The position numbers were made by a program, and so were the translations under genes. This document shows, in pieces, positions 6,519 to 63,874 of a DNA stretch of 64,000 bases. Below the pieces are notes generated by a model. The model was not told the origin of the DNA and did no database searches. It was given only the letters and a program-made list of their open reading frames with translations. Each line of letters opens with the position of its first letter. Position 1 is the first letter of the stretch. Origin of the DNA: a virus; the IMG/VR virus record IMGVR_UViG_3300027835_000143, positions 31,718 to 95,717 of that record. The stretch is one strand, 5' to 3'.

Positions 6519-7835
6519 ATGTCAGATTACGTGATGCCGATGCCGAGCACCGATCCCGCCATCAATACGGCCGCGTTCGTCGCGCTCAGGACGAGGGTCG
6601 CCGCAGACGGTAGCGGATGGATCTCGTTCCCATCCGGTGACTACACGTTCCAATTGATCGGCGGCAGCGGTCCGAACCAGACCTACGCCCTCGAGTTGCC
6701 GCCGCAGCGGTTCGCCGTCGTCGGTGCCGGGCATGGCGCGACGCGGCTCAGGCTCGCCGCCGGCAGCCCGACATGGGCGCGCGTGATCGGGACGAATGGA
6801 TCCGTCGATGGCCGGATCGCGCACCTGACGGTGGACGGCAACAAGGCTGCCGTCTCTGTCAGCGAGCAGTCACACGGTATCTTTCTGAGCAGTACGGAAC
6901 GCCTTACGATCGAAAATCTAGCCGTATACGCGACGCATGGCGATGGGATCTACTGGCACAATTATGCGCGTCGGAACGTCATCCGTGGCGTGCACTTGGA
7001 CGACATCGGCAGGGTCGGCATCCACGCGCAGACGTTCGAGAGCTGCGCCATTCGCGAGTCGTTCTTCACCGGCGCGATGGGGCAGGGCTGCATCAAGACG
7101 GAACAGGACAATCCAGGCACGATCGCGAACGGATTGACGATCGCGAACAATCACTTCGATGGCGATGGGTCCTACGCTGATAACTTCGCTATCCTCATTA
7201 GCGGCTTCGACTCCGCGAACCGAGCCTTGAAGATCATCGTTGAGGGGAACCAGATCAAGCGATTCCGGCTGGCGATCGGACTTGGAATCTGGTCGACCGG
7301 CTGGAACATTAGCGGGAACATCATCGACAGTTGCCACTCCGGGATCGTCGAGACGAATTACGCCGTCACCTACGGATATGACAGCCACGAGGATATCTCA
7401 ATCGCGGGGAACGACTTACTCTACATGATCGACGCAGGCTATGAGGAATGGGCGATCAGCCTGTCGAACGCGCGCGTCGCCTCCATCCTCGGTAATACGG
7501 CCTCGGTGCGCACGCGCGGGCTGCGCCTGCGCCACTGCACCGACATCGATACCGCGAGGAACAATATCATGATCCGCGAGGCGGACGGCATGGGTGTCAT
7601 GTTCTACCGCAGCCCGGACGTCTCATCGTTGGGGGATTCGGTACGTACTGCCGGTGGTGTCGCCTACGGTGCGTACATCGCCGACGACGCGACGTATATC
7701 GGCACGCCGGCGCAGATCCTCGACTTCACGGTGCGCGGGCATTGCCAGTACGGCATCCGGCGCGATCTCATCAATCCGACATTGGTCACGGTGCGCGACT
7801 TGATCGCGGCCGACGCGGTCTATCCGCTGTACTGA
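6519..7835 (+). CDS. Right-handed beta-helix (pectate-lyase-like) tailspike/depolymerase
   Basis: FPSGDY, GAGHGATRL, LTVDGNK, HGDGIY, repeated I.GN.I rungs; ATG 6519 after GAGG. Confidence 0.75.
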   Translation: MSDYVMPMPSTDPAINTAAFVALRTRVAADGSGWISFPSGDYTFQLIGGSGPNQTYALELPPQRFAVVGAGHGATRLRLAAGSPTWARVIGTNGSVDGRIAHLTVDGNKAAVSVSEQSHGIFLSSTERLTIENLAVYATHGDGIYWHNYARRNVIRGVHLDDIGRVGIHAQTFESCAIRESFFTGAMGQGCIKTEQDNPGTIANGLTIANNHFDGDGSYADNFAILISGFDSANRALKIIVEGNQIKRFRLAIGLGIWSTGWNISGNIIDSCHSGIVETNYAVTYGYDSHEDISIAGNDLLYMIDAGYEEWAISLSNARVASILGNTASVRTRGLRLRHCTDIDTARNNIMIREADGMGVMFYRSPDVSSLGDSVRTAGGVAYGAYIADDATYIGTPAQILDFTVRGHCQYGIRRDLINPTLVTVRDLIAADAVYPLY

Positions 7836-44514: not shown

Positions 44515-45065
44515 GCGAGCACGACTGGTACACGACGGCGTCCGGGATCGCGTTCCTGCCGCTCGCGCCACGCATGGAGGACATCCGCATCGAGGACATC
44601 GCGCACGCGCTCGCGGCGACGAACAGGTTCAACGGCCACGCGCGCGTTCCGTATTCCGTCGCCCAGCACTCGGTGCTCGTCAGCCGCGCCCTCCGCGACG
44701 GCGGCGGCACGCGCCAGGACCAGCTCCACGGCCTGCTCCACGACGCCGCCGAGGCGTACCTCTGCGACGTCCCGCGTCCGCTGAAGCGACGGCCGGAGAT
44801 GGCGGCGTACCGGGAGGCCGAGGCGCGGCTGCAGGCGATGATCTACGCGCGGTTCGGACTGCCGCCGGAGGAGCCGGCGTCGCTGAAGCTTGTCGACCGG
44901 CGGATGCTGCGGACGGAGCAGCGGGACCTGATGCCGCCATCACCGCTGCCGGACGCCAGACCGGAGGAGCCGTACGCCGCGACGGTGGTCCCGTGGACGT
45001 TCGAGGCCGCGCGCATGCTGTTCCACGTAATGTACTCGATTATTCACGAGGATCTGTCCGAATGA
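44511..45065 (+). CDS. HD-domain phosphohydrolase (YfbR-like 5'-deoxynucleotidase)
   Basis: IEDIAHALA..NRFNGH, YSVAQHS, LLHDAAEAY..D.P.P.K. Confidence 0.88.
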   Translation: MSEHDWYTTASGIAFLPLAPRMEDIRIEDIAHALAATNRFNGHARVPYSVAQHSVLVSRALRDGGGTRQDQLHGLLHDAAEAYLCDVPRPLKRRPEMAAYREAEARLQAMIYARFGLPPEEPASLKLVDRRMLRTEQRDLMPPSPLPDARPEEPYAATVVPWTFEAARMLFHVMYSIIHEDLSE

Positions 45066-45688
45066 GTCTCTTCGGACCGACCGTCGCCGTACCACCGCAA
45101 GCCGGACGCTATCATGTCTTGTATCAAGATCCGCCGTGGCCGGAACGCGGCGGTGGTCAGATCAAACGCGGCGCCGACAAGCACTACGACCTGATGGACG
45201 TCGACGCGATCGTCGATCTCTTCCGGACGTTCGGCGAATGGTCCGCGCCGGACGCGCATCTCTACTGCTGGGTCACGAACAACTACCTACAGGCCGGTCT
45301 CGACTGCCTTAAGGCGGCAGGCTTCCGCTACGTCACTATCTGTACGTGGGTGAAAGATAGGCCAGGACTCGGTCAGTATTTCCGTGGCAAGACTGAGCAC
45401 GTACTTTTCGCAGTTCGCGGTTCGCTGCCGTATCGCGTGAAGGCCGACGGGAAACGCGCGCAGGGTGAGACCGTGTTCTACGCGCCGGAGCCGACCGATC
45501 TCGATCTGCTCCTTCCGGCCGACCTACCTGACGCGTTCGAAGCGCCGAGACGCGAGCATTCGAAGAAGCCGGAAGAGATGCGGCGGATCATCGAGTGCGT
45601 GAGCGCCGGTCCATACCTCGAACAGTTCGCTCGGCGTACCGCGCCTGGGTGGGACGTATGGGGCGCAGAAGCTCCGAAGGAACAGTGA
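45062..45688 (+). CDS. MT-A70 family DNA adenine methyltransferase
   Basis: DPPW, HY..M, LY.WVTN, W.K...GLG.YFRG.TEH, HSKKPE, LE.FAR...GWD.WG. Confidence 0.9.
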   Translation: MSLFGPTVAVPPQAGRYHVLYQDPPWPERGGGQIKRGADKHYDLMDVDAIVDLFRTFGEWSAPDAHLYCWVTNNYLQAGLDCLKAAGFRYVTICTWVKDRPGLGQYFRGKTEHVLFAVRGSLPYRVKADGKRAQGETVFYAPEPTDLDLLLPADLPDAFEAPRREHSKKPEEMRRIIECVSAGPYLEQFARRTAPGWDVWGAEAPKEQ

Positions 45689-46913: not shown

Positions 46914-47153
46914 ATGGTGATAGACGACGCGCGGAAGCCGGCGCAGCCGGTGGATGGCCTGCTCGAGGACATGTTCGATCTAGAAACGGTCGAGCGGATG
47001 AAGGAGGCGCAGGCGTCGGACGCGTTCCAGCGCGTCGACTTGGATACGACCAATCCGGAGTATCGCTGTCCGCACTGCGGCTACGAGTGGCGCGGCAACC
47101 CACTGCCGCCGACCGGCGCGGAGATCAATGAGGACGGCGATGGCGAAGCGTAG
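46914..47153 (+). CDS. Small acidic Zn-ribbon protein typical of phage methylase loci
   Basis: YRCPHCGYEW. Confidence 0.6.
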   Translation: MVIDDARKPAQPVDGLLEDMFDLETVERMKEAQASDAFQRVDLDTTNPEYRCPHCGYEWRGNPLPPTGAEINEDGDGEA

Positions 47154-49383
47154 GGCGTCGGATGACTGGCAGCTCGGCATGTCGTTCGACGCCGAGACCG
47201 GCGCCGAGACAGTCGTCCCGATCGACGTACCTGGTGTCGCCGAGCCGGACCCACTCGACGAGATCCTGGCTGCGCCGTCGGCCGCGCCGTTCGTCTTCGA
47301 CGGTGTTCCGTTCGGGTCCGTCGGTGAGCTGCTCGCCGAGTGCGTGCCTGACGTGGACGCGGAGGTCGGCCTGGCGACCGACGCCGCGCCTCCTGAGGAG
47401 CCGGACGAGGATCTGTCACTGAACACGCGCGTCTGCATCGTCGATGCAGACGCGCAGGCGCCGACGGTCATGGCAGCCGGCATGGGCGACGCGAAGCTGA
47501 CGCAGACCTACCTCGGTGATGAGCGGACCGGGTCGCATCGGTTCGACATCGCCGGTGCGCGCCGCCTCGTCGTGCCTCCTGATAAACCTGCGCCGACGGT
47601 GATGGCTGGTGGGATCGGATCGGTAAATACCTCGCAATACACCGACGGTGTATTGCGAGGGAGCGCTGCTGAGGACGGCGTAAAGCCTCAGTACCGCATC
47701 CCGCTGATGCGTGAGATCGCCGCCGTCCAGTCGAATGGGCTGCTCGCCGTGTCGACGTTTACCGGCTGCGGCGGCAGCGACCTCGGGCTAGAGATGGCCG
47801 GCTACGACGTCCTGTGGGGCAACGAGTTCATACCTGCCGCGCAGGACACGTTCCGCGCGAACCACCCGCGGTCGCTGCTGGATACGCGAGACATCCGGAC
47901 CGTGACCGGCGCGGAGATCACGGCCGCGCTCGGCGGCAGGGAGATCGACCTGTTCGTCGGCTCACCTCCGTGCGCGTCGTTTAGTACGGCAGGTAAGGGC
48001 AGCAAGGGCTGGGGCCAGGTGCGGTCCTACAGTGACACGAAGCAGCGGACGGATGATCTGTTTGAGCAGTACATCAGACTCGTGGATGAACTGCGCCCAC
48101 GCGCGTTCGTAGCTGAGAACGTCGCCGGGATGGTGAAGGGCGTCGCGGTCGGGTTCTTCAGGCGCTACCTGCGGAAAATGCGGACGCTGCCGTACAACGT
48201 CGAGGCCAGGCTCTTGGATGCGCAGTGGCTCGGTGTCCCGCAGCGGCGCGTGCGGCTGATCTTTATCGGCGTGCGGAAGGATGTCGGCCGACCGGCGTGG
48301 CCGCGGAAGCTGGCGCACCGTTACTCGATCCGTGAGGCGATCCCATGGATTACCTCCGCGACGGCGAAGGGGCACAGCGACAGCGACTGGCAGAAGCCGG
48401 AAGATCGGATGAACGCTGAGGCACCGTGTCCGACGGTGCCTACTGGTGACAGCATGGGCTCCTTCTACGGCCATAACGTTGAACGAGTTACGATCCAAGA
48501 GGACGACTACGGAGAAGGCGTCGGCCGCCTGCGCAGCATTGATGCGCCTGGTGGGATCGGCGCGAATCGCGCCGATCCCAGAGACTTACCGCGCGTCATC
48601 TACGATGAGGGCTATAAAGGAACGCCGCCGAGAGACGTAACAGATGCCCCGGCGCCGACCATAAAGGTCGGCGCCGGGAGTTTATGTTCAACGCATTTCA
48701 TCGTTGACGGTGGCGGTCCCCCTGATGCCGATACGGTCCTCGGCGACAAGCGGCTGCAATCTATTTCGGACCGCCAGTGTGACGTTGTGATCGAGGGCTC
48801 ACACGGCTATGACGGCCACGCGCCGAGGTCTGTTGATGAACCGTCGGAAACGATCACCAACCGGACGCTGAGTGTTATCACTCAGCGTCCGGTTGAGACG
48901 GTCATCACCGATCGGAGCGGTTCGCAATTCCACCGGATTGATTCAAGCATCGACGAGCCGGCCGTTACGATTAAGGCGACGGAGTCGATGCAGGCGCTGC
49001 TCGACGAGCAGCGCCTGCATGAACCGAGCTACGGTGTGGAACCGCAGAGCGCCTTAGGGAACGCGGTCGGACTGGAGTGGGATAAGTTGCAACCAGGTGA
49101 GCAGAGCGATAAGTACCTGAGCCTGATCCGGCCTCACCCAGATGACGTGTGTCCGACGGTCACGCAACTCGGCGGTACGTCAGCTGCATCCGTCACGCAT
49201 CCGTTAGAGCGGCGAAAGTTCACCATCGCCGAGCTGCGCCGCATCTGTGGGTTCCCGGACGACTTCGTCTTGACCGGCACGTACTCGCAGCAGTGGGAGC
49301 GGCTCGGCCGCGCCGTGCCGCCACCGATGATGCGCGCGGTCGGCGAGGCGCTGGTCGCGGTGCTCAAGAAGGACGGCGCCTAA
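47140..49383 (+). CDS. C5-cytosine DNA methyltransferase homologue, predicted carboxymethyltransferase
   Basis: Motif I FTGCGG, IV GSPPC, VI ENV, VIII QRRVR, IX R..TIAE..R...FPD, X LGRAVPP (Arg for the usual Asn). Confidence 0.88.
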   Translation: MAKRRASDDWQLGMSFDAETGAETVVPIDVPGVAEPDPLDEILAAPSAAPFVFDGVPFGSVGELLAECVPDVDAEVGLATDAAPPEEPDEDLSLNTRVCIVDADAQAPTVMAAGMGDAKLTQTYLGDERTGSHRFDIAGARRLVVPPDKPAPTVMAGGIGSVNTSQYTDGVLRGSAAEDGVKPQYRIPLMREIAAVQSNGLLAVSTFTGCGGSDLGLEMAGYDVLWGNEFIPAAQDTFRANHPRSLLDTRDIRTVTGAEITAALGGREIDLFVGSPPCASFSTAGKGSKGWGQVRSYSDTKQRTDDLFEQYIRLVDELRPRAFVAENVAGMVKGVAVGFFRRYLRKMRTLPYNVEARLLDAQWLGVPQRRVRLIFIGVRKDVGRPAWPRKLAHRYSIREAIPWITSATAKGHSDSDWQKPEDRMNAEAPCPTVPTGDSMGSFYGHNVERVTIQEDDYGEGVGRLRSIDAPGGIGANRADPRDLPRVIYDEGYKGTPPRDVTDAPAPTIKVGAGSLCSTHFIVDGGGPPDADTVLGDKRLQSISDRQCDVVIEGSHGYDGHAPRSVDEPSETITNRTLSVITQRPVETVITDRSGSQFHRIDSSIDEPAVTIKATESMQALLDEQRLHEPSYGVEPQSALGNAVGLEWDKLQPGEQSDKYLSLIRPHPDDVCPTVTQLGGTSAASVTHPLERRKFTIAELRRICGFPDDFVLTGTYSQQWERLGRAVPPPMMRAVGEALVAVLKKDGA

Positions 49384-50861
49384 TGTGCGGCGTCGTGGCG
49401 GCTTTCGATCTCGGCACGGTTGAGCGCGGCGTCGAGGCGACTCGCCATCGCGGGCCGGACGCGATGGGCATCGTCCAGCACGGAGGCGTCGCGCTCGGCC
49501 ACGCGCGTCTCGCCGTCGTCGACCTGGACCCGCGCAGCGACCAGCCGTTCGTCGTCGGTCGCACGACGCTCAGCTACAACGGCGAGGTCTGGAACCACAA
49601 GGCCGTGCGCGCGGAGCTGCAGGCGCTCGGGCGCCGGTTCAGGACGGCCGGCGACACGGAAGTGGTCGCGACGGCGTTGGACGAGTGGGGCTGGGAAGGG
49701 CTCCTGCGGCTGGACGGGATGTTCGCTGCGGCGTGGACGCACGGTGATGGGCAGCTCTGGCTGGCGCGGGACCGGTTCGGCGAGATCCCGCTGCACTACA
49801 CGGAGACGGCCGCGGCCAGCGAGCTGAAGGTCCTGCAGGCGGCCGGCCGGATGGGGCCGGCCAGCTACGTGCCACCAGGAGCGGTCGTGGTCCTCGGCAA
49901 TGCTAGCGCAAGCCGGTCGTTCTCCTTTCACACCAACGGGCAGCCTGAGCCGTCAGCGCTGGGATTTGAGGCAGCTGCCTCCGCCGTCCGGTCGGCCGTC
50001 ATCCGTGGGGTGGCAGACCGGACCATGGCCGACGTGCCGGTCTGCGCGCTGCTGTCCGGAGGGCTGGACTCGACCGTCGTGGCGTGGTCTGCGCTGCAGG
50101 CGATGCCGGCCTTGGTGACCTACGTGGCCGTGCAGGATCGTCGATCCAGCGACCTCAGGATGGCTAGGATGGCTGCTTCCGACCTCGGCGTGGACCTGCG
50201 CGAGGTCGACATCCCGGCGCCGACGCCGACAGACCTGGCGCGGACGGTCGCGGCCATCGAGCTGCCGCACAAGGCGCAGGTCGAGATCGGCTGGGCCTGC
50301 CTGGTCCTGGCAGCGCGGATCCGGTCGGACGGGTTCAAGGTCGTGTTCTCCGGCGAGGGCTCGGACGAGCTGTGGGGGTCGTACGGGTTCGCCTACCACG
50401 GCATCAAGGCCGAGGGCTGGCACGCGTACCGGCGCCGGCTGTTCCTTGACCAGCACCGGAAGAACTTCGCGCGCTGCAACAAGGCGTTCATGACGGCCGG
50501 CGTCGAGTGCCGGTTGCCGTTCCTGCACCCGCCGCTCGTCGACCTGGCGTGGAGCCTGCCGGAGACGTCCGTCCGACGCGACCGGCGACCGAAGGCCGTG
50601 CTTGAGGAAGCGTTCAAGGACGTGGTGCCGCGCGCGATCCTGCGTCGCGCGAAGGTGGCGTTCCAGGAAGGGCTCGGGATGCGCGAGGCGGCGGCGGCGG
50701 CCGTGGACGCGCCGGCGACGTTCTACCGCGAGACGTTCGAGAGGATGTATGGTGAGACCGTTGATCGTCGGCGAGGCGCCGGCGCGGACAGGGGATCCAC
50801 GGAGGCCGATCACGGGCGCGTGCGGCCGGAAGCTGGCGACGCTCAGCGGGATCTCTTTTGA
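49383..50861 (+). CDS. asnB: Asparagine-synthetase-like glutamine amidotransferase
   Basis: N-terminal CG, HRGPD, H.RL, NGE..N, DTE, RDRFG, LSGGLDS, GEGSDEL, E.RLPFL. Confidence 0.9.
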   Translation: MCGVVAAFDLGTVERGVEATRHRGPDAMGIVQHGGVALGHARLAVVDLDPRSDQPFVVGRTTLSYNGEVWNHKAVRAELQALGRRFRTAGDTEVVATALDEWGWEGLLRLDGMFAAAWTHGDGQLWLARDRFGEIPLHYTETAAASELKVLQAAGRMGPASYVPPGAVVVLGNASASRSFSFHTNGQPEPSALGFEAAASAVRSAVIRGVADRTMADVPVCALLSGGLDSTVVAWSALQAMPALVTYVAVQDRRSSDLRMARMAASDLGVDLREVDIPAPTPTDLARTVAAIELPHKAQVEIGWACLVLAARIRSDGFKVVFSGEGSDELWGSYGFAYHGIKAEGWHAYRRRLFLDQHRKNFARCNKAFMTAGVECRLPFLHPPLVDLAWSLPETSVRRDRRPKAVLEEAFKDVVPRAILRRAKVAFQEGLGMREAAAAAVDAPATFYRETFERMYGETVDRRRGAGADRGSTEADHGRVRPEAGDAQRDLF

Positions 50862-51195
50862 CGCGTTCGTCAGGCGCTTCGCGCGCGCGAACGTCCTGCA
50901 GGCGTGGCCTGGGGCCGCAGGCAAGGGGTCGTCATTCCCGATCGCCGAGGCGATGGTAGGGTCGGATCGGATTCGGCGGCGGTTCACGCGAGGGCGCACG
51001 GTCGTCGTCCTCGGTCACAGGGCGGCGTCGGCGCTCGGCGTCTTCGGCGCGACGTACTTTCGGCCGGTCACGATCCGCGGCGCGACGGTCGTCGTCGTGC
51101 CGCATCCGTCTGGAGTCAACAGGTGGTACAACTCGCGCGCGAATGCCAGTCGGATGGGACGGTTCATGCGCGCGCTCGCGAAGGGAGAGCGATAG
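50749..51195 (+). CDS. Uracil-DNA glycosylase superfamily protein
   Basis: IVGEAP, G..G..L, N, VVVLG, HPSG.NRWYN. Confidence 0.7.
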   Translation: MVRPLIVGEAPARTGDPRRPITGACGRKLATLSGISFDAFVRRFARANVLQAWPGAAGKGSSFPIAEAMVGSDRIRRRFTRGRTVVVLGHRAASALGVFGATYFRPVTIRGATVVVVPHPSGVNRWYNSRANASRMGRFMRALAKGER

Positions 51196-51202
51196 GATCG
51201 CG

Positions 51203-51349
51203 ATGGTTGTCTACTGCGTGACTAATGCGTGGCGCATGAAAATTAGCGCGGCGCATCTCGGTAAGACTCGATCCGTCGAACACCGCAGGCGGATCAGTGA
51301 AGGAATGCGCGGGAAGAAGCGAGGTCCGTATGCCAGAAACGCGCGATAA
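51203..51349 (+). pseudogene. Internally deleted GIY-YIG/NUMOD3 homing endonuclease relic
   Basis: MVVYCVTN start fused directly to KISAAHLGKTRS.EHRRRISE...GKK repeats. Confidence 0.55.
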
Positions 51350-52061
51350 AACAATGCCTGTCGGGAAATGGGAGTTCAACGATGACGTTACCAACGCATT
51401 TTCGGACATGCTGCAGCGGTCGATCCCGCAGTATGACGTCATGCGTGACGCCGTGCTGTCCGTCGGCAGGCAGTTCGCGCAGCAGCGGACGCACGTTCTC
51501 GACATCGGCTGCTCGCGCGGCGAGGCGCTGGCGCCGTTCGTCGAGGAGTTCTACCCGAAGCCGAAGTTCATCGACAAGTTCGTCGGCGTCGAGATCAGCG
51601 AGCCGATGCTCGCGGCGGCGCGCAAGCGGTTCGAGGGCCACGTCGCCAACGGCATCGTCGAGATCCTGCCGATGGACCTGCGCGTGGAATACCCGCAGGT
51701 CCGCGCGTCCGTGACGCTGTCCGTGTTCACGCTGCAGTTCATTCCGATCGAGCACCGGCAGCGCGTCGTGCAGGACGTCTACGACCACACGGTCCACGGC
51801 GGCGCGTTCATCCTCGTCGAGAAGGTCCTCGGCGAGACGGCGCGGCTGGACCGCGTCATGGTGGAGCGGTACTACCGGATGAAGGCGGACAACGGCTATT
51901 CGCAGGAGGCGATCGAGCGGAAGCGCCTGTCGCTCGAGGGCGTCCTCGTGCCGGTCACGGCGTCGTGGAATATGGAGCTGCTACGCCAGGCCGGGTTCAA
52001 GGAGATCGACACGTTCTGGGCCTGGATGAACTTCCGCGGCTTCGTCGGCGTGAAACGATGA
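51330..52061 (+). CDS. cmoA: Carboxy-S-adenosylmethionine synthase (CmoA-like)
   Basis: W.F...V...F.DM..RSIP.Y, DIGCS.G, FTLQF, EK, K..NGYS...I..KR.SLE.V. Confidence 0.85.
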   Translation: MPETRDKTMPVGKWEFNDDVTNAFSDMLQRSIPQYDVMRDAVLSVGRQFAQQRTHVLDIGCSRGEALAPFVEEFYPKPKFIDKFVGVEISEPMLAAARKRFEGHVANGIVEILPMDLRVEYPQVRASVTLSVFTLQFIPIEHRQRVVQDVYDHTVHGGAFILVEKVLGETARLDRVMVERYYRMKADNGYSQEAIERKRLSLEGVLVPVTASWNMELLRQAGFKEIDTFWAWMNFRGFVGVKR

Positions 52062-55337: not shown

Positions 55338-55552
55338 GCACGGTCGCGACACGCCACCGTACCGACCACAGGCTCGACACAGTGCCGGAGCGGCCGCTAA
55401 CGGATGGCGAGCTGCACCGGCTCGGCGTCCTCGTCAACCAGCGGCTCGACATCGGCTCGATCCTAGGCGCCGACGTCGACACGTCAACCCTCGTCCTTAT
55501 CCGGCGGCTTATCGGGACTGAACGCGCGCGGCGGCTGCATGGCGGTACGTAA
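55334..55552 (+). CDS. Hypothetical protein
   Basis: GTGA overlap. Confidence 0.4.
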   Translation: MSTVATRHRTDHRLDTVPERPLTDGELHRLGVLVNQRLDIGSILGADVDTSTLVLIRRLIGTERARRLHGGT

Positions 55553-56129
55553 GAAAGATTCCATCGCGGCACCGTACGGCAACCGTATCGTCGGGACGGC
55601 GATGGTTCCTGCCGGGCAGCTCCTCGCGAACGAGCTGAACCCGTTCGTCCATCCGAAGCCGCAGCAGGACGTCCTCGACGGCATGCTCACGCGCGTCGGC
55701 TTCGTCCAGCACGTGCTCGTCAACCGCCGGTCAGACCAGTCATGGGGCCAGCAGCGCGGCGTCGAGGCGGTGATCGACGGGCACCTGCGCGTCGAACTCG
55801 CGCTCACGCGCGGCGAGGAAACGGACGTGCCGGTCGCGTACGTCGACTGCACCGCCGATGAAGAGCGCGCGCTCCTACTGTCGATCAATCCGATCGCGAC
55901 AATGGTCGTGCCGGACGCAGCGAAGATCGCCGAGATGGCGCTCGAGCTGCCGGAGGACCTACGCGCGTTGACGGAGGTCCTCCGGCAGGAGCGGAAGGGC
56001 GCGCGCCGGACGGTCGTGTTCGAGACGACGGAGTGTAACCGCGTGGTCGTCGACTGCGAGTCGGCTGCGCAGCAGCAGGCCCTGCTCATCAGGCTCTCAG
56101 GCGAGGGCTACGCGTGCAGGGCGGAATGA
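55539..56129 (+). CDS. ParB/Srx-like N-terminal domain protein
   Basis: N..NP..H...Q, VG....V.VN, IDGHLR, VPV.YVD....E. Confidence 0.75.
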   Translation: MAVRKKDSIAAPYGNRIVGTAMVPAGQLLANELNPFVHPKPQQDVLDGMLTRVGFVQHVLVNRRSDQSWGQQRGVEAVIDGHLRVELALTRGEETDVPVAYVDCTADEERALLLSINPIATMVVPDAAKIAEMALELPEDLRALTEVLRQERKGARRTVVFETTECNRVVVDCESAAQQQALLIRLSGEGYACRAE

Positions 56130-57062: not shown

Positions 57063-57446
57063 ATGCACATGCACGCGCGCGAGACGGTAAACACGCAGTG
57101 GATCGCTGAGCGGCTCGCCGACCTGCTGTCGTCCTGGTGGCTCGCCGGCGCGCCGGAAATGCGCGACGCGGTGCCGGTCGTGACGGTCTACGGCGGCCTC
57201 TGTGACCTCCCGCTGGCACAGGCGGCACCGCGCAAGGCGGGCCGTCGGATCGTCAGGCTCGCGTACGACTACGAGGAGCAGTTCGCCGCGCACGCGTACC
57301 TGCCTGAGGCCGAGTTCGAGAGGCAGGTCATCCGGCCGCTGGCGACGTCCGGCGAGGCGCTCCGGGCGCGCGTCCGGCAGGCGCGCCGGGAACATGAGGA
57401 GCGAATGGTCTACAAGCACGATACGAGTCGGCGATGCAGGTCGTAA
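57063..57446 (+). CDS. Hypothetical protein
   Basis: Fills gap in coupled operon. Confidence 0.45.
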   Translation: MHMHARETVNTQWIAERLADLLSSWWLAGAPEMRDAVPVVTVYGGLCDLPLAQAAPRKAGRRIVRLAYDYEEQFAAHAYLPEAEFERQVIRPLATSGEALRARVRQARREHEERMVYKHDTSRRCRS

Positions 57447-58456
57447 TCACCGGTGGTTCCGGGTTCCTCGGCAGGGCGCTCGTCTCGCGCCTCTGCCGAT
57501 CGGGCGCCGACCGCATAGCCACGTTCTCACGCGATGAGCAGAAGAGAGCCGCGCTCCAACGCGAGTTCGCATGGCATCCAGGCTTCAGAGTTTATGCTGG
57601 CGATGTGCGCGACGCCGGCCGGCTGCCGGATCTCTTCTACGGTTGCGAAGCTGTGATCCACTGCGCCGCCAGAAAGATCGTCAGCGGGCACCCGGACGAG
57701 CCGGAGGAGATGCTGAAGACGAACGTCTGTGGCACGCTCAACGTCGTCAACGCCGCTCGCGCTGCCGGGTGCCGGAAGCTCGTGTTCGTGAGCAGCGACA
57801 AGGCTGTCCGGGCGGAGAACGTCTACGGGAAGTCGAAGGGGCTGGCAGAGGATCTCGTCGTCAACGCGAACGCGCGGACGATGCACGACGGCCTCCGCTG
57901 CGGCGTCGTGCGGTATGGAAACGTCATCGGATCGACCGGATCCGTCGCCGTCTTCTGGCGGCAGCAGGCGCAGCGCGGACTGCCGCTCCAGATCACGGAT
58001 CCGCAGATGACAAGGTTCTGGATTACCGCGGCGCAGGCGGTCGACCTCGTCCTGGCGGCGCTCGCGAACCTGCGCGGTGGCGAGATCGTCGTCCCGCACC
58101 TGCCGGCCGCGCGTATCACGACGCTCGCCGAGGCGATCGCCGGGGACGGCGTGACGTTCCGGCCGGTCGATGACGTCCCGATGGAGCGCGCGGCGAACGC
58201 GGCGCGGCAGGGCGGTGAGAAGGTCCACGAAGAACTGCTGTCAGCGACCGAAGTGCGGCGTGCGGTGCGGCGCGATGACTATTACGTCATTCCACCCTTC
58301 CAACATTCTGAGATGTGGGATGCCAAGCCGTGGCTCGGCCAGCCGGTAGACCAGGCGCTCGCCTACCGGAGCGACGTCTGGCCGTGGCAGCTAACCGTGG
58401 CTGATATGCGCGAGCTGCTCGCGTCCTGCGACTCGATCGCCGAGGCGCGCCGGTGA
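57434..58456 (+). CDS. pseB: UDP-GlcNAc 4,6-dehydratase (PseB/FlaA1-like)
   Basis: TGGSGFLG, FSRDE.K, GDVRD, H.AA.K.V, SDKA, YG.SK, VRYGNV.GS.GSV, ITD..MTRF, GEK.HE.L. Confidence 0.9.
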   Translation: MQVVITGGSGFLGRALVSRLCRSGADRIATFSRDEQKRAALQREFAWHPGFRVYAGDVRDAGRLPDLFYGCEAVIHCAARKIVSGHPDEPEEMLKTNVCGTLNVVNAARAAGCRKLVFVSSDKAVRAENVYGKSKGLAEDLVVNANARTMHDGLRCGVVRYGNVIGSTGSVAVFWRQQAQRGLPLQITDPQMTRFWITAAQAVDLVLAALANLRGGEIVVPHLPAARITTLAEAIAGDGVTFRPVDDVPMERAANAARQGGEKVHEELLSATEVRRAVRRDDYYVIPPFQHSEMWDAKPWLGQPVDQALAYRSDVWPWQLTVADMRELLASCDSIAEARR

Positions 58457-59169
58457 GCGCGCCGCGCGTCGTCGCCGTCGTGCAGGCACGGTTCGGATCC
58501 TCGCGGCTGCCAGGGAAGGCCATGCGGGTCCTCGCCGGGAGGCCGATGCTCGCGCACGTGCTCGAGCGCGCCGCCGCCGTCGAGGGCGTCTCGACGATCG
58601 TCCTCGCGACGACCGTCCGCGAGTGCGACGACGCGCTGGCTGCGCTCGCTCTAGCATCCGGCGTCCCGTGCTTCCGCGGCGACGAGGCGGACGTCCTGAC
58701 GCGGTTCGAGCTGCTGGCGCAGCTCCATCGTGCGGACGTCATCGTCCGCCTGACCGGTGACTGCCCGCTGATCGACCCTGCGGTCTGCGCCGCGGTGCTC
58801 GCGGAGTTCGCCGAGCCACCGCAGGCCGACTTCGCCTCGAACGACACGACGTCGTCCGGCTACCCGGACGGCACCGACTGCGAGGTCATCGGCCGCGATG
58901 CGCTGCGAGAGGCATGGCGGAACACGCGCATCCAATCGGACCGCGAGCACGTGACGCCGTGGATCCGGCGTCACAAGACCTGCCGGACGGTGCGGTACGC
59001 CGGGCCGGACGACCTGCGGCGCGTCAAGCTCTCGGTAGACACGGAGGAGGACTTCGCGCGCGTCAGCAAAATATTCGCCAAGCTGAAGCCAGGCGAGACG
59101 TCGCTGGCCGCGACGCTGCGCGCGGCCGGCGTCGCGCTCGGGAACGGCCGGACGCCGGGACGGATCTGA
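58453..59169 (+). CDS. spsF: SpsF/PseF-like acylneuraminate cytidylyltransferase
   Basis: QAR.GSSRLPGK, FRG.E.DVL.R, R.TGDCPL.DP, P.G...E, REHVT, LSVDT.ED. Confidence 0.88.
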   Translation: MSAPRVVAVVQARFGSSRLPGKAMRVLAGRPMLAHVLERAAAVEGVSTIVLATTVRECDDALAALALASGVPCFRGDEADVLTRFELLAQLHRADVIVRLTGDCPLIDPAVCAAVLAEFAEPPQADFASNDTTSSGYPDGTDCEVIGRDALREAWRNTRIQSDREHVTPWIRRHKTCRTVRYAGPDDLRRVKLSVDTEEDFARVSKIFAKLKPGETSLAATLRAAGVALGNGRTPGRI

Positions 59170-59170
59170 A

Positions 59171-60043
59171 ATGGAGATGGAGCCGATCGTCATCTACGCA
59201 CTGGTTGACGGCGAAGGGAGACGTCGTTACGTCGGGAAGACGACATGCTTGAAGCGCCGCTTCGCGAGGCACCGCCGGCCGAGGCCGTGGGCGGTAGGAG
59301 TGATCGTGCTCGAAGAGTGCACCGCAGAGGCGTGGCAGGAGCGCGAGAAGTACTGGATACGACATGCGCGGCGAAGCGGATGGCCCATCGAGAACCTTGC
59401 CGACGGCGGTTGCTCAGGGAGGCCGAATAATTTCGGCATGACAGGCCAGAAACATTCTGCCGATGCGCGCGCCAAAATTTCAGCGGCACAGCTGGCGTCA
59501 TGGGTGACGCCAGAGCGTCGCGCGAAGGACGCGGCGAATAATCGGAGACGCGGCCCGCTGCCAAAGGCGCGACCGCCGCGCGAGCCGAAACAGAACGCCC
59601 GTTTCGCGAAGGGTAACATTCCGTGGAACGCTGGCCGAACCAAGGACACCGACGAACGTGTCGCTTCTATAGGTGCAAAAGTCGCGGATAGGCTGCGCGG
59701 CCGCGCGCCGTCAAACAAAGGTCGGCCGCAGTCTGACGCGGCGCGCGCTGCTAATAGCCGCGCGCATTCTGGCCTGCGATGGAGTCACAATCGGCGTGCA
59801 GCATTCGAGCGGTCACGGGAGGCGTGGTTGCTTACGCTACGAGGTGTACGTCGTAGCAAGTCGTGGACGGCTAAACAACGCGCGGCGCGCGGCTATCCAG
59901 CTATGGTCACCGTCAGGTGTGCTGTGTGCGATACCGCGCGGACGATTCGAGAGACTCAGACTAAGCGTGGTAGAGGTAAATATTGTTCTGCGCGGTGCAG
60001 AGGGATCGCTTCCGCCGCAGCGCGCTGGAGGAAGGCGTCGTGA
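59171..60043 (+). CDS. GIY-YIG homing endonuclease with NUMOD3 repeats and C-terminal Zn finger
   Basis: IYAL......YVGKT, R...H, RE..WI, N...GG; G.KHS...R.KIS; C..C...KYCS..C. Confidence 0.8.
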   Translation: MEMEPIVIYALVDGEGRRRYVGKTTCLKRRFARHRRPRPWAVGVIVLEECTAEAWQEREKYWIRHARRSGWPIENLADGGCSGRPNNFGMTGQKHSADARAKISAAQLASWVTPERRAKDAANNRRRGPLPKARPPREPKQNARFAKGNIPWNAGRTKDTDERVASIGAKVADRLRGRAPSNKGRPQSDAARAANSRAHSGLRWSHNRRAAFERSREAWLLTLRGVRRSKSWTAKQRAARGYPAMVTVRCAVCDTARTIRETQTKRGRGKYCSARCRGIASAAARWRKAS

Positions 60044-60903
60044 AGACTACCGTCATTGCCGAACCTGGCTGTACGCATGAAGGATCTTTCCAGAAGATGC
60101 AATCACTTATAGCTCTCGCAGCCGATTGCGGCGCGACCGGTATCAAGTTCCAATGGTGTTCAGATCCTGAGATGCTCGCGCGGCGACGTGACGCCGCAGA
60201 CATGTTGCCGTACTACCAATGGCTGAAGTTCCCGCTCGACTGGCTCGCCGACCTGCGGGCGCGCGCGACGCAGCGCGGCCTGACGTTCGGCTGCACGGCG
60301 TACCTGCCGCGCGACGTAGCGGCCGTCGATCCGTATATCGACTTCTATAAGATCGCTGCATTTGAGGCGACGGCCGCGGACTTGATCGCGGCAAACGTCG
60401 CCCAGATGCGCGGGAACGAAAAGCCGCTCGTCGTCAGCCTCGGACTCGGCGCGGCGGCGACAGACCTGCGCGTGCTCCTGAACGACGCCGACATATCGGC
60501 TCGTACGCTGCGCCTCCGCTGCGTCTCAGCGTATCCGACGCCGATTGGCGAACTCGGCCTCGCGGCGCTGCATCCTGGCGGCGACGATCCGATCGACGGC
60601 CTGTCAGACCACACGGCAGCGGACGATCCCGACTCACTGAACGTCGGCGCGCTCGCCGTCGCAGCCGGCGCGCGATGGATAGAGCGCCACGTCCGTCTCG
60701 CCGAGTGCCGCGAGAGTAATCCGGATCATGCCGTGTCGTTCTCGGCCCACCCGTTCGCGGAGTACGTCCACCGCATCGTCGTCGCGGAACAGGCGACCGT
60801 CCGCCGTACCGGCGCGGCGCCGTCTGAGCAGCCAATGGAGCGCCACAAGGCGAAGGGACCGTCAGATGCCAGCAGCAGCCGTAGAAGCCGTCGCGCTGAG
60901 TGA
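60040..60903 (+). CDS. neuB: NeuB/PseI-family nonulosonic acid synthase (no SAF domain)
   Basis: VIAE.G..H.G, GA..IKFQ, KIA.FE, S.G, CVS.YPTP, GLSDHT, GA..IERH, PDH..S. Confidence 0.88.
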   Translation: MKTTVIAEPGCTHEGSFQKMQSLIALAADCGATGIKFQWCSDPEMLARRRDAADMLPYYQWLKFPLDWLADLRARATQRGLTFGCTAYLPRDVAAVDPYIDFYKIAAFEATAADLIAANVAQMRGNEKPLVVSLGLGAAATDLRVLLNDADISARTLRLRCVSAYPTPIGELGLAALHPGGDDPIDGLSDHTAADDPDSLNVGALAVAAGARWIERHVRLAECRESNPDHAVSFSAHPFAEYVHRIVVAEQATVRRTGAAPSEQPMERHKAKGPSDASSSRRSRRAE

Positions 60904-61204
60904 GTGCGCCGGCTGCGGCCGGTCCGACCTCCCGCTCGCGGCAGTCACGCTGTGCACGCCGTGCTTCCGCCTGAACGACGAACGCGTGACGGCCGTCCGG
61001 CTCCGGCTCTCAGGCGACGTCGACTGGGAGGACGTGCGGAAGTACGGCATCTACGACCGGTACGGCGTCCCGATCGCGACCGTGCTGCGGATCGAAGACG
61101 GGTGGTCCGGTGCGCAGCAGCACGGGATGATGTCGACAGGACGGATACGTCTCAGCACCGTACCAGACGTGAAGGCGCTGACGGTCAAGGAGCTGAAGCG
61201 ATGA
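60866..61204 (+). CDS. Zn-finger hypothetical protein
   Basis: CAGC...LC..C. Confidence 0.4.
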   Translation: MPAAAVEAVALSECAGCGRSDLPLAAVTLCTPCFRLNDERVTAVRLRLSGDVDWEDVRKYGIYDRYGVPIATVLRIEDGWSGAQQHGMMSTGRIRLSTVPDVKALTVKELKR

Positions 61205-61404
61205 GCGAGTTCCCTGAATGGTTGGAGGACAGGATCGGTATCGTGTCTGACCTCTCGTCAGCCGAGGCGAGGGATCTCCACAAGTCGCTGGACGTCCTGC
61301 GCCGTCACGTCCCGGACCTCGACGAGATCATGGCCGAGCACCCGACGCGCGCGCGGTTCCGGTCCTGGCCGTTCCTGAAACGGTACGCATTCATATGCCG
61401 GTGA
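61201..61404 (+). CDS. Small hypothetical protein
   Basis: ATGA overlap, AAGGAG RBS; resembles phage E.R..I..EA domains. Confidence 0.45.
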   Translation: MSEFPEWLEDRIGIVSDLSSAEARDLHKSLDVLRRHVPDLDEIMAEHPTRARFRSWPFLKRYAFICR

Positions 61405-61410
61405 GGCTCG

Positions 61411-62103
61411 TTGACATCGACGTCTGCGCGCGACAATATCGGCCGCTCGGTCATCGAAGAGAGGATCGGCCAGATGCGATTAGATGATTTCTGGCGGTCG
61501 TCGCGGTGGCTCGAATACGAGCTGGCGTACGGCGACGCGCAGGGCACGCGGAGCGCGCAACTCGCGGCGGCGATGTGGCGCACGCGTGTCGTCGACCTCG
61601 CGCGGCCGGTAGAGGCGCTCTGGCGCGACGTCCGTAGGAGCTACCACGCGCTGATCCACCGCGCGGAACGCGTCTGGCCCATGCAGGTCATGACAGACAC
61701 CGACGTGGGCGTCGACTTGCCCGGCCCGCGGGTGCTGCACGCGGTGGAATCCGGACGCGTGACTCGGCCGCTGCGGACGTGGGCGCTGATGGCCGACTGG
61801 ACCCGCGCGGAAAGCGGCCTCTGCGTGTCCGCGCGCGACGACGACCCGCCGTATCACATGGTCGGCTTCGCCTACTTCATCCGCGACGGCGCGTGGGGCT
61901 ATTACGCGAGCGCCGCGACGGTGCGGCGAGACCTGAACCACGCCATCGTCTGGCGCGCGATGCTGGAATTGCGCTCCAGCGGCGTCCGATGGCTGGAGAT
62001 GGGCTGGCAGGGTGAGGCGCAGGGCGACAAGGGGAAGTCGATCGAGTTCTTCAGGAGAGGCTTCGGCGGAGCCGACCTGCCGCTCGACGCGGAGCTGGCA
62101 TGA
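61411..62103 (+). CDS. FemAB-like GNAT protein (start uncertain)
   Basis: VDL....E.LW..VR.SY..LI; YY..AA; H...W..M..L...G...LE.G; F..GFGG. Confidence 0.75.
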   Translation: MTSTSARDNIGRSVIEERIGQMRLDDFWRSSRWLEYELAYGDAQGTRSAQLAAAMWRTRVVDLARPVEALWRDVRRSYHALIHRAERVWPMQVMTDTDVGVDLPGPRVLHAVESGRVTRPLRTWALMADWTRAESGLCVSARDDDPPYHMVGFAYFIRDGAWGYYASAATVRRDLNHAIVWRAMLELRSSGVRWLEMGWQGEAQGDKGKSIEFFRRGFGGADLPLDAELA

Positions 62104-63437
62104 CGAAGTATGACGAATCCGCCAGGTACCTCGCGCGCGCTGGTATTATCCCTGGCCGGTCGCTAACGCATAGCAAGGCGCCGGGACGCATGTTCGACGT
62201 CGGCACCGGGCCGCTCTACGCCTCGTACGGCGACGGCTGCCGCCTGACGGACGTCGACGGCAACGAGTTCGTCGACATGGTCTGCGCGCTCGGCGCGATC
62301 AGCCTCGGCTACGGCGCCGCCGCAGATGCGGCGCAGGATGAGGTCTCGGACGGGTGGGTCTACTCGCTGCCGTCGTTCCGTGAGGTCGTCGCGGCCGAGA
62401 CGTTCCTCGAGCACGTCGCGCCGTGGGCGTCGTCGGTCCGGTTCGTCAAGACCGGGTCCGAGGCGCTACAGGCCGCCGTCCGGTTCGCGCGCGCGGCGAC
62501 GAGCCGTAGCATCATACTCATCGCTGACAACGCGTACCACGGCTGGCATGACTGGGTGCAGGCGTCGCACGGGACGCGGCGGACCTCCGGCGGCGGCTAT
62601 GAGCCGGCACGCGTCGATGCACGCATCTTCTCGTCGGTCTCGTTGGTCCACCCTCCCATGCACTGGTGCCTCGACGACACGTGGCCGAACGGCGTGCCGA
62701 TCGGCTACACGTCAGGCATAGGCGTCTACAGGTACGGCGACATGGGCAGCCTCGCCGCCGCCGCGAGCGCGGCCGGCTCGTCATCGTCGGCGTCAGGACG
62801 GACGCAGCAGTGCGTCGGCGCGGTGATCGTCGAGCCGGCACGGTGGGAAGACCCGAACCCGGACGGGTTCCTGCAGCGCGTCCGGAACTGGTGCGACGCG
62901 AACGGTGCGCTCATGATCGTCGACGAGATGATCTACGGCGGCCGGTGGGCGCTCGGTGGCGCGACGCAGCACTTCGGAGTGACGCCGGACCTCGCGTGCT
63001 TCGGGAAAGCGATCGGGAACGGCGCGCCGATCGCGTGCGTAGCCGGCAACGAGGCGCTCGCGTTCCTCGGCGAGACCGTGTCGGGCACCTATAGCGGAGA
63101 CGCAGCCGCGCTCGCCGCCATGCAGGCGACGCTACTGACGTATGCGTCGTCACCGGTGGTCGAGACGTTGTGGGCTAACGGCCGGCTGCTGCAGGCAGGC
63201 CTACGCGAGATCGCCGCGTCCGCGCCATCGCCGTGCGTGGCGGAGGGGCAGGCCGTGCATCAGCGCCTGCGGTTCACCGAGCGGCCGGACCTCGGCCGGG
63301 TGTTCGCAGGCGAGATGGCCTCGCGCGGCGTCCTGTGGCATCCGGACGTCGTGAACGTCATGGCGGCGCACGCACCGACTGACATCAACCTCGCGCTCGA
63401 CGCCGCGCGGGCGAGCATGGCGGCGGTGCGCGCATGA
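62100..63437 (+). CDS. Class III PLP aminotransferase (GSA-aminomutase-like, sugar pathway)
   Basis: G.GC...DVDGN.F.D, LG...LGY, F.KTGSEA, YHGWHDW, I.EP, I.DE, CFGKAIGNG. Confidence 0.88.
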   Translation: MTKYDESARYLARAGIIPGRSLTHSKAPGRMFDVGTGPLYASYGDGCRLTDVDGNEFVDMVCALGAISLGYGAAADAAQDEVSDGWVYSLPSFREVVAAETFLEHVAPWASSVRFVKTGSEALQAAVRFARAATSRSIILIADNAYHGWHDWVQASHGTRRTSGGGYEPARVDARIFSSVSLVHPPMHWCLDDTWPNGVPIGYTSGIGVYRYGDMGSLAAAASAAGSSSSASGRTQQCVGAVIVEPARWEDPNPDGFLQRVRNWCDANGALMIVDEMIYGGRWALGGATQHFGVTPDLACFGKAIGNGAPIACVAGNEALAFLGETVSGTYSGDAAALAAMQATLLTYASSPVVETLWANGRLLQAGLREIAASAPSPCVAEGQAVHQRLRFTERPDLGRVFAGEMASRGVLWHPDVVNVMAAHAPTDINLALDAARASMAAVRA

Positions 63438-63874
63438 TCACGCTCCGCGCAGTCACGGACGCTGACGCAGTCGCGCTGTACCGCTGGCGCAACGATGACG
63501 AGGCGCGCAAGTACAGCGGTAGCAGCGGCCGCATCCCGTGGCAGGAGCACATCACCTGGTTCGGGAACCGGCTGCTCGCCGGTGCGTGGCTCATCGCGAC
63601 GTCCGTCCCGGAGGCGACGGCAGTCGGAACCGTGCGCTGGGACAGGCACTTGGACGACCGGACGTGGATCTCGGTCCTCGTCGCGCCGGAGCATCGCGGC
63701 CGCGGCGTGGGCGCGGCGATCGTGCTCGTCGCGACCGGACGGCGGGCGGGGCCGGTCTACGCGCGGATCCACGAGGGCAACGCACCGTCGCTCCGCATCT
63801 TCGCGCGCGCGGGCTACGTCCGGCTCCCGGAGGAAGATGACGGCGTCTGGCAGACATGGTGGAGGATGGTCTGA
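63434..63874 (+). CDS. PseH-like GNAT N-acetyltransferase
   Basis: LY.WRND, I.W.EH..WF, VG.VR.D, RGRG.G, N..S.R.F..AGY. Confidence 0.8.
   Translation: MITLRAVTDADAVALYRWRNDDEARKYSGSSGRIPWQEHITWFGNRLLAGAWLIATSVPEATAVGTVRWDRHLDDRTWISVLVAPEHRGRGVGAAIVLVATGRRAGPVYARIHEGNAPSLRIFARAGYVRLPEEDDGVWQTWWRMV

Follow-up and report, generated by a model that had tools for sequence, protein, structure and literature searches.

The question raised by this locus is whether a run of five phage genes encodes a route to a hypermodified DNA cytosine, and what a protein with the fold of uracil-DNA glycosylases (UDG) would contribute to it. The genes fill positions 46914-52061 on the + strand of a 64-kb window, meaning the whole stretch of DNA analysed here, which forms the final part of one 95,717-bp virus record (IMG/VR IMGVR_UViG_3300027835_000143). 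Judged by its sequences, the cassette probably encodes a CmoA-CmoX-CmoY-type pathway for hypermodifying cytosine in phage DNA, with a predicted amidation step and a UDG add-on. For this phage, homology, conserved catalytic residues and gene linkage were observed.

The five genes are coupled. The first, ORF79 (46914-47153), encodes a small zinc-ribbon protein and overlaps by 26 nt the gene for a 751-residue homologue of CmoX-type C5-carboxymethyltransferases (47128-49383). The stop codon of the latter and the start codon of the following gene share the sequence TAATG; the AsnB-type glutamine amidotransferase or amide ligase (a glutamine-type ‘CmoY’, 49383-50861) therefore begins at ATG 49383 (MCGVV...) and comprises 492 residues. 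The gene for a compact, 148-residue protein of the UDG superfamily (50749-51195) starts at ATG 50749, 113 nt within the ligase open reading frame (ORF), and is preceded by the Shine-Dalgarno sequence GAGAGGA. After a gap of about 134 nt follows cmoA (51330-52061), whose ORF (51297-52061) opens at GTG 51297, while the likely start is ATG 51330 after GAGG. A preliminary description of this DNA had named a C5-methyltransferase, an asparagine synthetase homologue with an N-terminal nucleophile (Ntn) cysteine, a UDG-fold protein and a CmoA homologue as coupled genes; all four were found in this interval on the + strand, ORF79 being an addition to that description, and the coupling is borne out by the two overlaps and the TAATG junction.

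The closest known precedent is the system of Synechococcus phage S-B43, in which CmoA makes carboxy-S-adenosylmethionine (carboxy-SAM, Cx-SAM), CmoX writes 5-carboxymethylcytosine (5cxmC) at GC sites and CmoY ligates glycine onto the 5cxmC carboxylate (Yang et al., Nat Commun, December 2025, PMC12783734). The methyltransferase homologue of the cassette (PF00145, E 2.5e-50) has the SpCmoX structure 8YF3 as its best match in the PDB (E 2.9e-49), followed by the HaeIII methyltransferase (E 3e-22). The motifs GSPPCASFS, AENV, QRRVR and ERLGRAVPP can be read directly in its sequence. In the printed alignment with 8YF3, the catalytic Cys282 (SPPC) falls on C98 and motif X, ERLGRAVPP, pairs with ERVGRMVPP, so that Arg728 stands on SpCmoX Arg350. 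SPPC and R350 are also what Yang et al. used as database criteria for CmoX (PMC12783734).

In 8YF3, solved at 1.9 A, Arg350 touches the cofactor's carboxymethyl group; wild-type SpCmoX takes Cx-SAM only, and the R350N variant takes neither cofactor (PMC12783734). The deviating motif X (LGRAVPP) singled out in the preliminary description thus corresponds to a cofactor-contacting residue, and the M.MpeI precedent quoted there, the N374K change by which that enzyme was switched to a carboxymethyltransferase, was confirmed in the same paper (PMC12783734). Its reading of the locus as CmoA-dependent writing of 5cxmC followed by amidation is supported as an inference: it matches the published CmoA-CmoX-CmoY pathway and, for the amide, a prediction made in the same paper. 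Its caution that the core chemistry might not be new was correct (PMC12783734).

The catalytic columns were invariant in an alignment of 13 homologues of this methyltransferase. Motif X carried Arg in 11 of the 13, and CmoA was present in the locus of all 11; the remaining two (L023 and L025) had Asn, with no CmoA at either locus. This co-variation is an independent confirmation, genomic in kind, of the presumed cofactor-switch residue.

The CmoX homologue carries an N-terminal extension of about 200 residues and an insert of about 230 residues in the target-recognition region. In the AlphaFold2 (AF2) model, the catalytic core (185-410, 640-751) was confident, and residues 1-183 and 410-640 had a predicted local distance difference test (pLDDT) score below 50. 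The G+C content at third codon positions (GC3) was 0.62-0.72 in the insert (codons 400-650) versus 0.8-0.9 in the remaining gene and its neighbours; the insert may have been acquired recently or may be evolving fast. Seven D-x-P-x-P-T-[VI] motifs occur in the protein. Their likeness to the TL..GG loop of C5-methyltransferases suggested tandem target-recognition domains, as in a multi-specific enzyme, and this idea was found to be unsupported; self-BLAST of the CmoX homologue returned no repeat beyond the short motif itself.

Two further observations concern this gene and its relatives. A perfect 13-bp G+C-rich inverted repeat at 48648-48678 (CCCGGCGCCGACC ataaa GGTCGGCGCCGGG) with a T-rich tail behind it is terminator-like; its place is within the CmoX coding sequence, in the part encoding the low-GC3 insert (residues of about 507-517). 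In the related locus L008 (5308-6948), the CmoX ORF opens with an in-frame extra C-terminal module, made up of the last stretch of the target-recognition region, motif IX and a motif X reading ERLGRSVPP, and then continues into a complete CmoX. The extra module could be a tandem duplication or a fusion remnant.

For the CmoA homologue, the CmoA models were by far the best NCBIfam matches, although the scores lay below the equivalog cut-offs: 149.9 bits (E 9e-44) versus 193.3 for TIGR00740, and 103.4 versus 285 for NF011995. The protein also matched phrog_4752 (E 4e-73). Residues 22-253 aligned over the full length to H. influenzae YecO (1IM8, E 3e-30) and to E. coli CmoA (4GEK, E 3e-28). In the latter alignment, RKRLSLEGV paired with E. 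coli QKRSMLENV, which contains Arg199, so that the arginine of the K-R-x-x-L-E motif, reported as kept in the preliminary description, is indeed its equivalent. The nearest phage relatives are the CmoA proteins of jumbo Erwinia phages (45-49% identity).

A second clue comes from the neighbourhood of cmoA in relatives. A gene for 3-deoxy-D-arabino-heptulosonate 7-phosphate (DAHP) synthase lies directly after cmoA in L005 (8181-9017) and near cmoA in L116 (8571-9293) and L086 (12-290); none was found in this phage's own genome. DAHP synthase is the first enzyme on the route to prephenate, and its position beside phage cmoA suggests that the prephenate needed for carboxy-SAM is supplied, in some phages, by an enhanced shikimate route. 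Indirect support for the predicted synthesis of Cx-SAM comes from the linkage of cmoA to an Arg-type CmoX and from DAHP synthase beside cmoA in relatives.

The ligase contains the Pfam domains GATase_6/7 and Asn_synthase and matched TIGR01536 with E 1.5e-80. It carries the Ntn nucleophile Cys2, the pyrophosphatase (PP) loop SGGLDS (as LLSGGLDS) and SGEGSDE. Compared with E. coli AsnB (1CT9, E 1.8e-42), the equivalents of R49, N74-G75-E76 and D98 are conserved, and the catalytic columns were invariant in 25 homologues. Since the Ntn cysteine and the AsnB glutaminase residues are kept, glutamine-derived ammonia would be the natural nucleophile. Among the ligases surveyed by Yang et al., the second-largest cluster has a glutamine-hydrolysing domain, for which ammonia was predicted as the substrate (PMC12783734); the present enzyme probably belongs to this glutamine-type cluster.

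A profile search of IMG/VR with the ligase yielded 103 relatives, from which 80 loci were kept. CmoX and CmoA were each found in 72 of the 80, all three genes occurring together in these 72 loci, and the rest were cut by contig ends. The check proposed in the preliminary description, that the genes should co-occur in related phages, was therefore passed. The gene order was (ParB)-CmoX-ligase-CmoA where the ligase was about 50% identical to that of this phage; a large number of other loci, with ligases of about 45% identity, had the order CmoA-ligase-CmoX. The closest cultured example was Streptomyces phage TurkishDelight gp121-125 (NC_073473), whose gp124 is 51% identical to the ligase.

The nearest relative of the cassette, L005, has the order ORF79-CmoX-UDG-CmoA, with identities of 54% for ORF79, 59-67% for CmoX and 63% for CmoA, and contains no ligase, which marks the ligase as an exchangeable, movable module. 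The last 36 or so residues of the ligase extend beyond the C-terminus of its homologues, over the UDG start, as would be expected if the ligase gene had been inserted before an existing UDG gene.

The UDG-fold protein matched PF03167 with E 2.8e-5, just above the cut-off, and phrog_12275. A sequence search of the PDB returned nothing significant. Its AF2 model had a pLDDT of 95.6, and Foldseek matched it to E. coli MUG, UdgX, the family-4 (Tth) UDG and TDG, with template modelling (TM) scores of 0.6-0.7 and, for the first three, a probability of 1.00. Among viral structure models, the closest were two small UDGs, one from Bordetella phage MW2 (TM 0.84) and one from Sinorhizobium phage phiM9. 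The protein carries GEAP as motif A, Asn48, and PHPSGVNRW as motif B. A family alignment of 35 sequences showed no change at N48, H119 or PHPSG; in GEAP, the G, A and P were almost always kept, and a few members had Q for E.

The protein shares with MUG/TDG (family 2), family 4 and UdgX the alpha/beta fold, a GE.P-type motif A, an HPS motif B and the invariant Asn between them. In contrast to these, it is far smaller (148 residues) and lacks the Fe-S cysteines and the KRRIH loop of UdgX. Only one Cys occurs in its 148 residues, and the 35-sequence alignment has no conserved Cys column; an Fe-S cluster is therefore not expected, and the four-Cys signature of family 4 is absent. Among the PADLOC defence models, none matched the UDG-like protein or ORF79.

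A motif search of IMG/VR for this UDG family yielded 38 loci. In about 14 of them a CmoX-type methyltransferase gene lay no more than 7 kb away, in most cases directly upstream, and about 14 had a TET-associated glycosyltransferase (TAGT, PF20691) within the same distance, often adjacent. Three contigs from three metagenomes (L017, L019 and L020; 47% G+C) encode a 417-residue ORF (L017 6209-7462), located between CmoX and CmoA, in which a PP-loop Asn-synthase-like ligase domain is fused to a UDG-like domain.

In GenBank, the family was present in 46 records, 41 of them Pseudomonas phages, with M6, LKO4 and PAE1 among those listed. The protein studied here and gp09 of the M6-like Yuavirus phages are members of one small UDG family, and phage M6 DNA carries the hypermodified thymidine 5-(2-aminoethyl)uridine (PMC5889632). 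In LKO4 (L126, NC_041934), gp09 (7001-7507), annotated as ‘uracil-DNA glycosylase’, lies between ribonucleotide reductase and the pyridoxal phosphate (PLP) and radical-SAM genes, about 2 kb upstream of these two. No mention of this UDG-like gene in pyrimidine-modification contexts was found in the literature searched.

Some features of the TAGT-type loci were recorded in passing. In five complete TAGT phages, a search for Tet_JBP gave no match, the control genomes being silent too, and no ThyA-type hydroxymethylase was found. A 1210-residue ORF in L011 (2915-6547), separated by about 450 nt from the UDG-like gene downstream, joins a TAGT domain (100-316) to a DNA polymerase domain of family A (853-1208). 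TAGT is preceded by a conserved domain (W..W.GMPEF.Q ... T.SIWYP) of about 100 residues that has no Pfam match; it forms small ORFs just upstream of TAGT in L009, L018, L029 and L035, and is fused to a ParB N-terminal domain in L039 and L042.

From these comparisons, we infer the following route. CmoA would convert S-adenosylmethionine (SAM) and host prephenate into carboxy-SAM. The CmoX homologue would flip cytosine, Cys282 would attack C6 and the carboxymethyl group would be moved to C5 to give 5cxmC, while Arg728 would hold the carboxylate of the Cx-SAM cofactor. The AsnB-type enzyme would adenylate the 5cxmC carboxylate at its PP-loop site, and ammonia that the Ntn-Cys domain frees from glutamine would then amidate it. 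The product predicted in this way, 5-carbamoylmethylcytosine, would be a neutral amide shielding the DNA from restriction, an anti-restriction purpose suggested by the S-B43 work, where 5cxmC blocked HhaI (PMC12783734). The UDG-fold add-on would protect the heavily modified genome, its putative targets being uracil formed as a by-product of the methyltransferase, or modified cytosine that has been deaminated and stands opposite G. ORF79 and a ParB-like protein encoded at 55539-56129 may together be a split form of the ParB-ribbon partner of CmoX.

Compared with the S-B43 system, the common elements are a Cx-SAM synthase homologue, a C5-methyltransferase with SPPC and the motif X Arg, an ATP-dependent ligase of the AsnB family, and ParB-type proteins. 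The differences lie in the CmoX homologue, which has 751 residues versus 372 owing to the extension and large insert, in the UDG-fold gene within the cassette, and in the ParB domain and zinc ribbon, which are encoded by two genes 8 kb apart. The ligase, in addition, has an intact glutamine-hydrolysing domain and lacks detectable similarity to SpCmoY, so that a simple amide rather than a glycine amide is predicted as the product. The next comparison is with the glutamine-type cluster of Yang et al. (A0A7T0Q3R0) and with TurkishDelight gp121-gp125, which has the same genes in the same order, (ParB)-CmoX-glutamine amidotransferase-CmoA. It differs in having two ParB-like genes, a methyltransferase of 423 residues, no UDG-like gene and a CmoA of another lineage (28% identity).

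Several points weigh against the proposed pathway. The CmoA homologue scores under the NCBIfam equivalog cut-off and shares only 27% identity with SpCmoA, the enzyme that was tested, and the N-terminal extension and insert of the CmoX homologue are not covered by the proposed scheme. The ligase has no similarity to the tested glycine ligase SpCmoY detectable by tblastn, as S-B43 was not returned at E 1e-5 from 50,697 phage records that include it, and no soluble enzyme was obtained from the glutamine-type ligase cluster (PMC12783734). With regard to the UDG family, about 11 of its 38 loci are generic replication or nucleotide-metabolism neighbourhoods, and four of the five complete TAGT phages have no C5-methyltransferase; methyltransferase-driven deamination is thus not the sole reason for the family. 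Finally, the UDG-fold gene was found in only three of the 80 glutamine-ligase loci and, being absent from 77, is not needed for the pathway. On the evidence of these gene neighbourhoods, the family is enriched in pyrimidine-C5 modification clusters, but these clusters do not require it and it is not confined to them.

Within the preferred pathway, the UDG-fold protein is most probably an active uracil-type glycosylase that would keep the hypermodified genome free of uracil or deaminated modified bases. This simplest reading draws on analogy. In E. coli, the gene overlapping that of the C5-methyltransferase Dcm encodes Vsr, which repairs the deamination product of that enzyme. UDG activity has also been linked to thymidine-hypermodified phage genomes through the polymerase UDG domains of SP-15, YerA41 and phiLo (PMC13697223), so that in both cases a repair activity is genetically tied to pyrimidine-C5 modification. 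The likeness has limits: Vsr is an endonuclease without the UDG fold, and the polymerase-fused UDGs are larger and joined to the replicase; the protein here is a putative glycosylase. A broader reading, put forward tentatively, is that the small UDG-fold protein represents a dedicated accessory family for three pyrimidine-C5 chemistries (carboxymethyl-cytosine, the glycosyl-type TAGT clusters and M6-type aminoethyl-uracil), with a pocket fitted to C5-substituted pyrimidines, and that the genome carries 5-carbamoylmethylcytosine. It could then act as a quality-control glycosylase removing deaminated or unfinished modified bases, or as a non-excising base-flipping subunit handing the base to the ligase, as hinted by the ligase-UDG fusion. 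The second of these roles also stands as a rival to repair in its own right, the protein serving as a base-flipping or substrate-presenting partner that would, for example, hold flipped 5cxmC for the ligase. The fusion ORFs between CmoX and CmoA in L017, L019 and L020 speak for it, as do the start of the UDG gene inside the ligase ORF in this phage and the precedent of glycosylase-fold proteins of another kind (helix-hairpin-helix) that became transferases in thymidine hypermodification (PMC5889632, PMC8989533). Such a role is nevertheless doubtful, given that most CmoX loci with a UDG-like gene have no ligase, that 77 of the 80 ligase loci have no UDG, that the family also occurs in generic replication contexts, and that it retains the Asn and His characteristic of UDGs that recognise uracil. 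A complex prediction for the ligase and the UDG-fold protein, run without controls, gave a score of 0.00, which counts neither for nor against this role.

The identity of the final product leaves room for another rival, in which the pathway ends at or branches from 5cxmC, the ligase adding a group other than ammonia or amidating carboxy-SAM before the transfer. The sole characterised ligase of the system attaches glycine (PMC12783734); carbamoylmethylcytosine is not named in the literature searched, where it was not found as a DNA base either, and L005, with CmoX, UDG and CmoA only, indicates that the ligase is exchangeable. However, the retention of all AsnB glutaminase residues, invariant in 25 homologues, is hard to explain without ammonia delivery, and since CmoX keeps the carboxylate-binding Arg, the transferred group should be carboxymethyl and not an amide; such other products are accordingly unlikely. 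It would be far less probable still that the genes serve RNA or metabolism, with CmoA acting in tRNA cmo5U formation or as a SAM drain, the methyltransferase making 5-methylcytosine and the AsnB homologue making asparagine. The classical role of CmoA is indeed in tRNA modification, the NCBIfam name of the ligase match is asparagine synthase, with TIGR01536 just above its cut-off, and SAM depletion by CmoA was raised by Yang et al. (PMC12783734). Yet the cassette contains no CmoB, and the methyltransferase is nearest to SpCmoX among solved structures, with Arg in place of the motif X Asn. SpCmoX itself used only Cx-SAM, and its R350N variant neither cofactor (PMC12783734). Across the homologues Arg and CmoA co-vary, and the three genes are neighbours in 72 of 80 loci.

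The zinc-ribbon protein ORF79 (YRCPHCGYEWRG / YRCPHCGYEWRGNP) had no match in Pfam, NCBIfam or PHROG; its ribbon motif was recognised in an alignment of the ParB-like family. In relatives, the ParB-like proteins encoded ahead of CmoX end in a CPxCGYxWxG tail, to which ORF79 is homologous. A homologue of ORF79 is located upstream of CmoX in L005 and in four of the 80 ligase loci. In this phage, a 196-residue protein resembling the ParB N-terminal domain, without a zinc ribbon, is encoded at 55539-56129 on the + strand and clusters in BLASTP with the ParB-like neighbours of CmoX. Alone it had no Pfam match at E 0.01, and a family profile with this protein as the first row matched Spo0J/ParB/Noc structures (E 4.6e-10). 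The presence of a ribbon-less ParB-like protein and a separate ORF79 suggests that the ParB-ribbon partner is split in this phage.

The genome as a whole is classed as linear in IMG/VR, with a CheckV completeness estimate of 94%; its G+C content is about 67%, and nearly all likely genes lie on the + strand. The large terminase was at most 33% identical to any GenBank phage (50,697 records compared). Comparisons of DnaB and terminase pointed to no single host: the identities were only 31-38%, and the matched phages infect many different hosts. The record is therefore assigned to an uncultured phage of an undescribed lineage. An actinophage host was considered on the sole basis of the 51% ligase identity to one Streptomyces phage and was set aside. 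No near-identical DNA was found among GenBank phages, in a comparison in which the genome's own record may be masked.

Two features of the surroundings were also recorded. A methyltransferase of the MT-A70 family (N6-adenine) is encoded at 44993-45688, 1.2 kb upstream of the cassette, and MT-A70 genes occur near the UDG-like gene also in the related loci L005 and L011. A Polysacc_synt_2 (PseB-like) dehydratase at 57434-58456, beginning 1.3 kb after the ParB-like gene, opens the stretch 57434-63874, which was read in the preliminary description as a nonulosonic-acid cluster. Sugar-nucleotide enzymes are also present in TAGT-type loci carrying the UDG-like gene.

As the core pathway has already been published, the cassette mainly adds a member to it, and its interest rests on the predicted amide product and the UDG-fold accessory. 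It belongs to a branch whose chemistry is a prediction; if the prediction is true, the phage DNA carries 5-carbamoylmethylcytosine, a base whose counterpart in tRNA is the ncm5 group. Carboxymethyltransferases engineered for methylation sequencing make use of the same cofactor-switch residue. The UDG-fold gene raises the question of how phages with heavily modified pyrimidines avoid uracil and deamination products or, alternatively, whether UDG folds have been recruited into DNA modification itself. As cultured M6-like phages of Pseudomonas carry the same UDG family, this question can be tested at the bench.

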